Of a stretch of DNA of 59,724 nucleotides, positions 55,997 through 59,722 are shown one piece after another. The position numbers and the translations under genes were made by a program. Every line of letters starts with the position of its first letter. Position 1 is the stretch's first letter. The notes beneath the pieces are model-generated. The model had not been told where the DNA came from and did no database searches. It was given only the letters and a program-made list of their open reading frames with translations. The stretch spans positions 1-59,724 of the IMG/VR virus record IMGVR_UViG_3300014913_000014; one strand, 5' to 3'. Origin of the DNA: a virus. Taxonomy: Duplodnaviria > Caudoviricetes.

Positions 55997-56025
55997 TTGA
56001 CAAAAAAGCCGTTTTATGCTATAAT
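55997..56025 (+). promoter_or_regulatory. Consensus promoter for tRNA array part 1
   Basis: TTGACA-17-TATAAT with extended -10. Confidence 0.85.
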
Positions 56026-56231: not shown

Positions 56232-56236
56232 CCTAT

Positions 56237-56333
56237 GCCCTGTACCCCTTACGTTGGTTTACACCGTAGTAAATCAAAGACGCTGTTTGAACAGGCAGGG
56301 CTGGGAGTGTCAAAAGGGGTTGAATGGCACTCC
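56237..56333 (+). ncRNA. Putative pseudoknotted structured RNA (unknown family)
   Basis: Helices GCCCTGT/GCAGGGC, TTGGTTTAC/GTAAATCAA and GGAGTGTCA/TGGCACTCC; loop pairing ACCCCTT/AAGGGGT; fills the tRNA spacer. Confidence 0.55.
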
Positions 56334-56337
56334 GTGC

Positions 56338-56484: not shown

Positions 56485-56497
56485 CCTAGGAGGTGCT

Positions 56498-56674
56498 ATG
56501 TCAATACCAACATTGACTCTTTTATCTACAATTTTAGCCATCGTTGATGATGAACAAGAAGAAATAGATCATGTCTATTATTATGATGATAAAGACGGCC
56601 CAATCAGCGAATCGGATAAAATGGATGAAGAGCTAGAAGATATCGAATATCGAACAAAATTTGATAGGAGGTAG
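56498..56674 (+). CDS. 58-aa very acidic protein with hydrophobic N-terminus (below ORF-track cutoff)
   Basis: SD AGGAGGT; MSIPTLTLLSTILAIVDDEQEEIDHVYYYDDKDGPISESDKMDEELEDIEYRTKFDRR. Confidence 0.65.
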   Translation: MSIPTLTLLSTILAIVDDEQEEIDHVYYYDDKDGPISESDKMDEELEDIEYRTKFDRR

Positions 56675-56994: not shown

Positions 56995-57134
56995 CCTATG
57001 GTGATACCTTTTATTGGCTTTGATTTATTATTGCATGCGCCCTTTGGATATGACCGTATACCATTTGCAGGGCATGTATGGGGGATTTGTTTCCATCCTC
57101 CACTTGATTTTCATGTACTTATATGGATAAGTTA

Positions 57135-57206
57135 GGTCAGAAACCCAATCGGCTAGGGAAGCGTCTGCAAAACGTTTTTTGGTGGGTTCGATTCCCACTC
57201 TGACCT
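57135..57206 (+). tRNA. tRNA-Cys(GCA)
   Basis: Cloverleaf; loop CTGCAAA; U73; A at position 8. Confidence 0.88.
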
Positions 57207-57209
57207 CCT

Positions 57210-57504
57210 TGTGACGGCTTGAGCCCACGCTGTACAATTGTGCAGAGGAAACTCAGGACTACTCCGCTTAAGGTGGGAGGACTATCAGTAGGCAGGGGCC
57301 ACGGTGAACATAAGAAACCACCCCCGAAATTTAGTCCGATTTACCACCGAGGTAGCAATCCTAAATTGCCTAGTGGGTGAGCGGCACTATGATGGCGTGG
57401 TTGGAGCAGTAACTCATAAAGAGTTACCACCGCAAGGTGAGATAGATGTGGGCAGGTTTCTAACATTAGAAATCTAACAGAATTCTGGTTACGGAGCCGT
57501 CACA
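57210..57504 (+). ncRNA. rnpB: RNase P RNA (divergent)
   Basis: P1 TGTGACGGCT/AGCCGTCACA; P2 GCCCAC/GTGGGC; P3 CTGTAC/GTGCAG; CR-I GAGGAAACTCAGGA pairs with CR-V ACAGAATTCTGGTTA (P4 with bulged U); CR-IV AGATAGATG; P19-like hairpin. Confidence 0.85.
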
Positions 57505-57713
57505 TGCATAAACTTAATTATCGTAAGACGTGGAAAGAATTTGGCAAGAGAATCCGAATAATTAATGGTTATCCCGCTTGTAGATGGCCCAGAAGAGGTT
57601 GTGGTCGATATTGGAAACGGCAATTGAGCAAGGCTCGTCGCAGAGCGTGGAAAGACCCACATCAAAGAGGTCTTCTACGTTGGGAACGTGAATGCAATTG
57701 GAAAAATTGGTGA
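57504..57713 (+). CDS. 69-aa highly basic Arg/Lys/Trp-rich protein
   Basis: ATG abuts the RNase P RNA 3' end; GGAG in the P1 strand is positioned as an SD. Confidence 0.5.
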   Translation: MHKLNYRKTWKEFGKRIRIINGYPACRWPRRGCGRYWKRQLSKARRRAWKDPHQRGLLRWERECNWKNW

Positions 57714-57717
57714 AAAG

Positions 57718-57948
57718 ATGACAGATATATCACTTACTGGCGGAGTCAAATTAGTAGAAAAGGCTCCAGAAAATTTAGAAATTGGAGAGGGTACATTTCC
57801 AGCCCATGGTGGAAAATTTAGAGGAGTAAGTGTCGGAAGAAACGACTATGGTTACTTCGTCTTTACTCATAGAACTAATTCCAAAGAGTACAACTCTCCA
57901 GCAGATATACCTGACGAAACTATTACATTTGTCAGAAGTACAGGATAA
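57718..57948 (+). CDS. Hypothetical protein (76 aa)
   Basis: Open ORF in the tRNA array; ATG at 57718. Confidence 0.65.
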   Translation: MTDISLTGGVKLVEKAPENLEIGEGTFPAHGGKFRGVSVGRNDYGYFVFTHRTNSKEYNSPADIPDETITFVRSTG

Positions 57949-58141: not shown

Positions 58142-58189
58142 TTGACAAATCATAGATTTTCTGCTATAATATGACAGCACATTAACAAT
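58142..58189 (+). promoter_or_regulatory. Consensus promoter (58142-58170) plus boxA-like GCACATTAACAAT (58177-58189) for tRNA array part 2
   Basis: TTGACA-17-TATAAT. Confidence 0.8.
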
Positions 58190-58765: not shown

Positions 58766-58768
58766 CAA

Positions 58769-58892
58769 GGACCAGCCGTAATTTATAGGATTATGGGCTG
58801 GGACCTGCCGTGGTTTTGACGATTGTACCATAAACAAGCGTCCTCTGGTCCCCTTAACGGGAACTCGAACCCGCATGGCAGTTTCTGGTCCA
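58769..58892 (+). ncRNA. Putative structured RNA (unknown family)
   Basis: Closing 7-bp GGACCAG/CTGGTCC plus A; CTGCCGTG/CATGGCAG; CCGTAATTT/GGATTATGG; GACG-TTGT/ACAA-CGTC. Confidence 0.55.
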
Positions 58893-58921
58893 TGCCTGCC
58901 TTATCAAAAATGGGCCACATT

Positions 58922-59371: not shown

Positions 59372-59722
59372 GTGTACAAAGTAGCAATAGTAGGTAGTAG
59401 ACGTTTTAATGACTACAACTTTATGCGGCGTGTACTAGACCCCCATGTTAACGATATCTCAATGATTATCTCTGGAGGAGCAAAAGGTGCAGATACACTG
59501 GCACAAAGATATGCAAGAGATAATGGAATACCAATATATATTATATATCCTGACTATAGAAAATATGGAAAAGTGGCACCGTTTCGTAGAAATGTAATAA
59601 TTGCAAATCTTGCAGAGAAAATGATAGCATTTGCTTATTCAGATAGTCGGGGAACAAGGCATGCTGTCAACAAAATGAAGCAACTTAACAAACCAGTAGT
59701 AGTAATAGAATTGGACCAGTAG
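59372..59722 (+). CDS. SLOG-superfamily protein (DUF2493/YspA-like)
   Basis: IVGSR, IISGGAKGADTLA, GKVAPFRRN and SRGT. Confidence 0.85.
   Translation: MYKVAIVGSRRFNDYNFMRRVLDPHVNDISMIISGGAKGADTLAQRYARDNGIPIYIIYPDYRKYGKVAPFRRNVIIANLAEKMIAFAYSDSRGTRHAVNKMKQLNKPVVVIELDQ

Follow-up and report, generated by a model that had tools for sequence, protein, structure and literature searches.

RNase P RNA counts as a hallmark of cellular genomes, and a two-domain design, with a catalytic (C-) and a specificity (S-) domain, as the norm in bacteria. Helices P8–P14 include CR-II/III and the T-loop binding site; here and below, helix numbers and the names CR-I to CR-V follow general usage in the field. In bacterial type A RNAs, the GGU of L15 pairs with the tRNA 3' end (RCC; PMC11143913). 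Bacterial C-domains alone are reported to cleave pre-tRNA with and without protein, albeit less efficiently (PMC11143913, PMC5839562), and C-domain-only constructs to bind pre-tRNA more weakly (PMC11143913). For the engineered C-domain RNA of E. coli (Eco CP RPR), a laboratory deletion with reduced efficiency, this efficiency is described as dependent on the P17 loop forming a P6-like pair (PMC5839562). A natural reduction is known from the archaeal type T RNAs of Thermoproteaceae, in which most of the S-domain is missing and the catalytic domain is kept. According to the same source, they preserve universal positions in P4, J2/4, and J15/2, their truncated stem ends in a small loop, and they are characterized by archaeal sequence, a 3-bp P2, a shortened P15, a 2-nt linker between P5 and P15, and archaeal proteins (PMC3579882). 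Among viruses, orthopoxviruses (camelpox) encode an RNA similar to bacterial and archaeal RNase P RNA; it belongs to a eukaryotic virus and is presented as having some secondary-structure similarity only and no pre-tRNA cleavage activity in vitro (PMC3001073). Diverged RNase P RNAs in bacteria of the CPR (PMC8172020) are also among the nearest literature items. Our search of full-text literature, which leaves most subscription journals outside and may therefore have missed an earlier report, returned no description of a phage-encoded RNase P RNA, and for a phage family lacking the S-domain we found no published description.

Here, we describe a 293-nt, phage-encoded, and tRNA-flanked RNA that shares P1–P7, the P4 and P6 pseudoknots, the bulged U, CR-I, CR-IV, and CR-V, J5/15, P15–P17, and the L15 GGU with bacterial type A RNAs (RF00010), but differs from them in having neither P8–P14 nor CR-II/III. 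In contrast to type T, it possesses a 6-bp P2, a 3-nt CAA linker, and a bacterial P15–P17 arm with GGU. It thus shows neither the 3-bp P2 nor the 2-nt linker of type T, and its best clan member is bacterial type A; the relation between the two is one of convergent reduction, not of membership. Like Eco CP RPR, it and its relatives keep a P6-like pairing (GCUU with GAGC), whereas they are natural, maintained by selection as judged from covariation, and retain P7 and a conserved irregular stem. Unlike the orthopoxvirus RNA, the phage family yields significant covariance-model scores, conserves the full core, and occurs among tRNA genes.

A predicted RNase P RNA in a tailed phage genome

The DNA analysed here (the window) is a 59.7-kb viral record with an estimated completeness of 67%; the phage comes from marine sediment. 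It carries genes for a portal protein, a large terminase, a family A DNA polymerase (PolA), and a DnaB-type helicase, and the contig is that of a tailed phage; its best PolA matches among cultured phages have <31% identity. The complete RNase P-like RNA extends from the 5' strand to the 3' strand of P1 at 57211–57503 on the + strand, which also holds its parts described below, tRNA-Cys, and the promoter at 55997–56025. A match there was obtained both with the Rfam model RNaseP_bact_a (RF00010) and with R1, a covariance model built from 10 relatives with the window excluded.

RF00010 aligned end to end (model positions 1–367) with 57211–57507 at 47.3 bits, with E-values of 2.6e-13, 9.8e-13, and 3.6e-15 in searches of 1 kb, 3.8 kb, and the whole record, respectively. 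The aligned parts comprise P1, P2, P3, CR-I/P4, P5, J5/15, P15–P17, CR-IV, and CR-V, and RF00010 was the best-scoring Rfam family and clan member. The score is below the Rfam gathering cut-off of 100 bits: with the curated thresholds, only tRNAs and no RNase P RNA were reported in the window, and the match emerged with E-value reporting. A comparison with Rfam models had been suggested in an earlier note on this DNA.

With R1, a single match was obtained in the 59.7-kb window (57211–57503; 136.4 bits, E = 2.5e-31, leave-one-out). Ordinary RNase P RNAs outside the family were matched by R1 as well, at 27–89 bits (maximum 88.9), and type A RNAs were found reciprocally. The minimum free energy of the window RNA corresponds to a z-score of −4.48, with 0 of 200 shuffles folding as well. 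Based on the covariance-model scores, the covariation described below, and the phage genes on the contig, we interpret the RNA as a divergent, phage-encoded RNase P RNA homolog within a tRNA array, which agrees with the central proposal of the earlier note. We consider it nearly certain that 57211–57503 encodes an RNA homologous to bacterial type A RNase P RNA and under selection.

The same 1,061-nt stretch recurs with 0–1 differences in contigs of sequencing runs (X3 and X5) that belong to different metagenome studies on marine sediment and hydrothermal vents; another run, X2, may represent the source sample. No RNA run was among those listed for this stretch, and the four runs that we examined contained DNA contigs only.

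Conserved elements of the catalytic domain

The model alignments confirmed P1, P2, and P3 where the sequence had first been read as forming them. P1 pairs 57211–57219 with 57495–57503; all nine pairs show compensatory changes in the family, and 8/8 pairs form in 11 of 14 testable members. In P2, GCCCAC (57223–57228) pairs with GUGGGC (57448–57453); five of the six pairs covary, and 6/6 pairs are present at the same architectural place in 15/15 members, which use 14 different strand pairs. The P3 hairpin (57230–57245) covaries in its outer pairs (4/4). CR-I (GAGGAAACUCAGG, 57245–57257) contributes the 5' strand of P4 (57250–57257) with the bulged U at 57253, and CR-V (AACAGAAUUCUGGUUAC, 57476–57492) contributes the 3' strand (57484–57490). 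The resulting pseudoknot, AAC(U)CAGG with UCUGGUU, departs from the usual AAG(U)CCGG/CCGGCUU by two compensatory changes and is one of several compensated versions in the family. It is 100% paired in 16 sequences with 5/7 pairs covarying, in line with the bulged-U pseudoknot and compensatory changes noted before. CR-IV (AGAUAGAUG, J18/2), likewise recognized from the sequence, was placed at 57440–57448 by both the RF00010 and the R1 alignment.

P5 is formed by CUAC (57259–57262) and GUAG (57352–57355) and is 100% paired, its third pair occurring as A-U (9), C-G (4), or G-C (3) across the family. Three bases 3' of P5, GCUU (57266–57269) is proposed as the 5' strand of P6, which would form a pseudoknot with GAGC (57379–57382) in the loop of P17. 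In the type A layout, this is the place of the 5' strand of P6. In E. coli, residues 81–86 are described as the 5' side of a 'P6-mimic' (PMC5839562). P6 is 100% paired in 16 sequences, with G-C changed to U-A in L023 and U-G changed to C-G in L141. RNAalifold offered an alternative pairing of CUU (57267–57269) with the GAG of CCGAGG; we disfavour it since a C-to-A change in L17 accompanies the G-to-U change of L023, a preference that has a single sequence as its basis. P7 comprises 5 bp between GGUGG (57272–57276) and CCACC (57344–57348) and is 100% paired; its fourth pair covaries (A-U 8, G-C 5, G-U 2, U-A 1). J5/15 follows as CAA at 57356–57358 in the RF00010 and R1 alignments, with A151 and A152 invariant in alignment A4. 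Across the family, little or no variation is seen in CR-I with its bulged U, CR-IV, CR-V, J5/15 AGCAA, and the L15 GGU, and the A-rich J3/4 is also kept.

Both RF00010 and R1 place a P15–P16–P17 arm at 57359–57405. It consists of P15 (UCC/GGA, 57359–57361 with 57403–57405; 3/3 pairs covary), P16 (UGCC/GGCG, 57367–57370 with 57394–57397; 4/4), and P17 (GUG/CAC, 57373–57375 with 57385–57387; 2/3), and the L17 loop GGUGAGC (57376–57382) contains the P6 partner GAGC. The L15 GGU lies at 57399–57401 and is found at the equivalent place in 16/16 aligned sequences. These results correct the earlier note, which had regarded P16/P17 and the L15 GGU as apparently absent and had taken the hairpin GTAACTC/GAGTTAC for a P15-like element. 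The likeness it had drawn to type B and type C RNAs without P16/P17 also fails, because P15–P17 and the GGU are present in the window RNA.

Selection on this structure is indicated by an alignment of 16 sequences that was guided by, and fitted to, the helices of R1. In it, 96.7% of pair cells pair, compared with 70.7% in shuffles (0 of 500 reach the observed value) and 30–48% with slid partners. Compensatory substitutions in which both partners have changed were found in 35 of 49 pairs. Although outside the structure of R1, P4 and P6 are fully paired. An independent MAFFT alignment of 15 sequences gave 86.4% standard pairs versus 64.2% in shuffles and 32–46% with slid partners.

Loss of the specificity domain and inserted hairpins

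RF00010 model positions ~74–220, corresponding to the specificity domain, are unaligned in the window RNA. Judged against the general CR-II/III consensus, P8–P14 with CR-II/III are absent, and P7 and one variable hairpin remain. The specificity domain had been described as hard to align; apart from P7, it is actually absent, a loss that had gone unrecognized. The true divergence of the window RNA is the loss of P8–P14, and the molecule is a structurally conserved homolog of bacterial type A RNA of which only the catalytic domain is left.

Compared with the family core, the window RNA contains three insertions. A variable hairpin (57279–57337) caps P7 at the place of P8–P14 and appears in the R1 alignment as an insertion of 54 nt versus 8 nt; across members, this hairpin ranges from a tetraloop stem to >150 nt. 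Two hairpins are inserted at the P18 position (57409–57439; 30 nt in R1), namely GUAACUC/GAGUUAC (57409–57427) and the GCAA-capped CACC-GCAA-GGUG (57428–57439). This insertion is missing from 10 of 16 aligned family members, and L370, L141, L140, L121, L144, and L327 have similar pairs of hairpins whose sequences differ. By this distribution, the GTAACTC/GAGTTAC hairpin is a lineage-specific insertion. The GNRA-capped hairpin of the earlier note was confirmed and stands at the place of P18, but it is part of an insertion found in some members only. P8, the usual docking partner of a GNRA-looped P18, is absent. The P19 hairpin was also recovered: a P19-like hairpin at 57455–57474 forms an 18-nt insertion relative to R1 and occurs in the window only among the 16 aligned members.

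Large insertions are tolerated elsewhere in the family. L140 (2740–3104) carries ~135 nt in the P3 loop, and L134 (4193–4530), L143 (10743–11039), and L144 (1890–2196) have inserts of ~90–160 nt in the P7 cap; the insert of L134 opens with an ATG frame containing cysteine pairs.

RNase P RNAs in phage tRNA arrays

A scan of IMG/VR with a degenerate CR-I motif yielded at least 118 stretches. Among the matches listed, 47 loci had a downstream ACAGAA and at least 6/7 P4 pairs, and 21 of these 47 carried at least 8 tRNA genes, with the element often located directly after a tRNA. We scored 40 of the 47 loci with RF00010. Five of those omitted (L020, L070, L092, L107, and L111) have motif strings resembling retained loci, and the remaining two (L033 and L065) have only 6/7 pairs and an odd offset. 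All 40 viral loci tested were matched; 31 exceeded the 100-bit cut-off with lengths of 269–508 nt, among them copies within tRNA arrays of near-complete 162-, 279-, and 463-kb genomes, and the other nine reached 50–85 bits (200–393 nt). The scores form a series from ~280 down to ~50 bits. The results for these 40 loci show that RNase P RNA genes are common in phage tRNA arrays of the IMG/VR collection and range from full-length to miniature.

Full-length type A genes (200–280 bits) were seen in tRNA arrays of large phages, some with complete genomes (L053, L025, L110, L002, L100, and others). Like the window family, the full-length RNAs lie on the same strand inside tRNA arrays, and several begin right after a tRNA, ~36–40 nt upstream of GAGGAAA; they keep the S-domain, whereas the window family is a branch without CR-II/III. 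A graded set of shortened forms (L054, L062, L091, L024, L067, and L105) still shows CR-II/III-like sequences. For the full-length RNA of L053, blastn matches were limited to metagenomic 'Bacteriophage sp.' records without annotation and to bacterial contaminants.

The family of the window was defined by two further motif scans of viral contigs and one each of metagenomes and genomes, with the signature GCUUAAGGUnGGAG ... UUGCACnACCGAGGnAGCAA ... GGUGAGC. The window RNA carries it as GCUUAAGGUnGGAG ... ACCGAGGnAGCAA ... GGUGAGC and matches R1 over its full length. In total, the family has at least 17 distinct members on viral and metagenome contigs (the window and 16 relatives), the smallest relatives measuring ~192–197 nt from P1 to P1. 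Applied to 383 other loci, R1 found all motif-defined members again but one: in L134, a large insertion breaks the match into two weaker parts (63.9 and 25.3 bits). Two members, L023 (162.6 bits) and L327 (147.1 bits), were gained through this search. In the metagenome motif scan, nine family-level R1 matches were found among the 119 matches listed, three of which duplicate viral loci. Among the 120 matches listed for bacterial and archaeal genomes, motif context and R1 revealed no family member. Two relatives (G002 and G005) reside in complete genomes with terminal repeats; the closest relative of the window is L370. The window RNA had no blastn match among cultured and GenBank phages, a method that cannot detect short conserved cores. 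A neighbouring 86-aa ORF used as a single-protein query found no related loci, and a two-sequence alignment of it recovered only the L015 contig again. Since family RNAs score below the Rfam cut-off, they would be missed by routine annotation.

Genomic context and predicted transcription

The window contains 20 tRNA genes on the + strand between 56046 and 59359. The RNA sits between tRNA-Cys (57135–57208), which ends with an encoded CC 2 nt before P1, and two small ORFs. After the discriminator base, C is encoded in 20 of 20 window tRNAs and CC in 14 of 20 (12 CCU, 2 CCA). With these counts, the proposal of an RNA possibly tuned to mostly CCA-less tRNAs fails; the encoded CC of these 14 tRNAs is the presumed partner of the GGU. 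CCU in place of CCA after the discriminator is also frequent in L015 (22/27) and L140 (10/12), and the tRNAs of L007 (24/26) and L341 (8/8) encode CCA. The GGU is kept in L138 and L325 although their tRNAs encode no CC (0/6 and 0/8, respectively).

Most family members lie in tRNA arrays. In 8 of 17 members, the RNA begins 2–8 nt downstream of a tRNA on the same strand, a count that misses L015 with its tRNA-Cys directly upstream, and the next tRNA follows 4–7 nt downstream in 4 of 17. In 6 of 17 members, no tRNA is located within 2 kb in the available flanking DNA.

Upstream of the first tRNA, a candidate sigma-70-type promoter with an extended −10 element (12/12 with TG) was found at 55997–56025 as a consensus match only, and no promoter of comparable sigma-70 quality was found for the RNA itself. 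The window RNA is therefore probably part of the tRNA transcript. The start of P1 2 nt after the CC of tRNA-Cys, together with the placement of the family, suggests its release by tRNA-trimming nucleases. Perfect TTGACA-17-TATAAT promoters with TG occur at both 55997–56025 and 58142–58170 (+), which makes two transcription units likely in the tRNA array. The array spacers at 56234–56337, 56487–56664, 56997–57134, and 58767–58921 (104–178 nt) had no Rfam match at E ≤ 0.1.

Downstream of the RNA, a very basic 69-aa ORF (57504–57713, +) starts at the last bases of P1, and a GGAG within the 3' strand of P1 is its likely ribosome-binding site. L015 has this ORF with 72% identity and L370 lacks it; no Pfam family matched it, and the Atlas gives only unnamed clusters at 0.90. 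We considered this ORF as a general protein cofactor and dropped it, given the missing Pfam assignment and its absence from the closest relative. A 76-aa ORF follows (57718–57948, +; L015 74%, L370 62%; no Pfam family). Directly downstream of the tRNA array, the end of the contig carries a gene for a SLOG-family protein (59372–59722, +; YspA/cpYpsA-related, PF10686, E = 1.2e-14). RnpA (PF00825) was found in none of five phage records searched, four of them complete, and the window contig has no RnpA gene; any protein partner of the RNA would accordingly have to be that of the host.

Proposed function and alternative explanations

We propose that the window RNA would be part of a tRNA transcript started at the 55997 consensus promoter, cut out by tRNA-maturing nucleases, and bound by the host RnpA protein. 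It would then cleave the 5' leaders of phage pre-tRNAs, with the L15 GGU pairing with the CC encoded by 14 of 20 phage tRNAs, so that an infecting phage would have RNase P of its own at its disposal. The conserved catalytic and acceptor-end-binding parts, taken together with the published cleavage by isolated C-domains, favour an active minimal ribozyme. We assign a probability of roughly 55% to this full mechanism, a phage ribozyme that uses host RnpA and cleaves phage pre-tRNAs. A broader generalization is put forward tentatively, at slightly below even odds: tailed phages may carry RNase P ribozymes, one lineage of which would be reduced to a catalytic domain of ~190–300 nt, excised from tRNA arrays, dependent on host RnpA, and engaged in maturing phage tRNAs. 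In the same reading, excision at the 3' boundary is possibly performed by the RNA itself.

The RNA might instead act as a decoy or competitor that binds host RnpA via P2–P3, CR-IV, and CR-V, cleaves poorly, and diverts or throttles host tRNA maturation instead of serving phage tRNAs. RnpA contacts the P2–P3/CR-IV/CR-V region of RNase P RNA, and this presumed contact site is retained in a phage without its own RnpA, while the S-domain as a source of tRNA affinity is gone. A protein sponge, however, needs no bulged U, A-rich J3/4, J5/15, or L15 GGU, all of which are conserved, and a phage with 20 tRNA genes needs more RNase P activity rather than less. The orthopoxvirus RNA has been discussed as a possible decoy, but the same report puts the reduction of host RNase P activity at only 20% (PMC3001073). 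We consider such a role distinctly improbable. Somewhat easier to entertain, yet still unlikely, is a repurposed RNase P-derived RNA that, for example, has relaxed its specificity and cleaves non-tRNA substrates or serves as a scaffold on which the polycistronic tRNA transcript is folded or processed. The nearly invariant stem GCUUAAGGUnGGAG ... UUGCACnACCGAGG, which replaces the S-domain, suggests a new interaction surface, and the tolerance of large insertions in P3 and the P7 cap as well as the six of 17 members away from tRNAs in the available DNA would fit this explanation. On the other hand, most members are located directly between tRNAs, the retained elements are exactly those for pre-tRNA cleavage, and no result points to an alternative target.

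A non-functional sequence, be it a decaying fragment of a host rnpB, mis-assembled host DNA, or a chance match over small ORFs, could account for the RF00010 score below the Rfam cut-off, for the small ORFs of 53 and 57 aa that overlap the region, and for a match on a contig that is only 67% complete. This explanation is already contradicted by recurrence, R1, and covariation, and we regard it as extremely improbable. Decay would not preserve a fold that 17 divergent members keep through compensatory changes; moreover, the 1,061-nt stretch recurs in X3 and X5, relatives occur in complete phage genomes with terminal repeats, and R1 matched 0 of the 120 bacterial and archaeal loci among the matches listed. 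A minimal phage ribozyme that matures phage pre-tRNAs with the help of host RnpA thus remains our preferred interpretation.

Implications for RNase P and phage biology

The family constitutes a natural experiment on the minimal ribozyme, in which P1–P7, P4, P6, and P15–P17 with the GGU have been kept and insertion-tolerant sites become visible. Its shortest members (~195 nt) offer small constructs for structure determination and engineering. If our interpretation is true, this catalytic-domain-only RNA would be the smallest RNase P RNA of bacterial type in nature and would parallel archaeal type T by convergence. For the phages, the RNA may define a new class of auxiliary genes, as phages with tRNA arrays may bring along a tRNA-maturing enzyme, and RNase P would then join the viral translation toolkit beside tRNAs and tmRNA.
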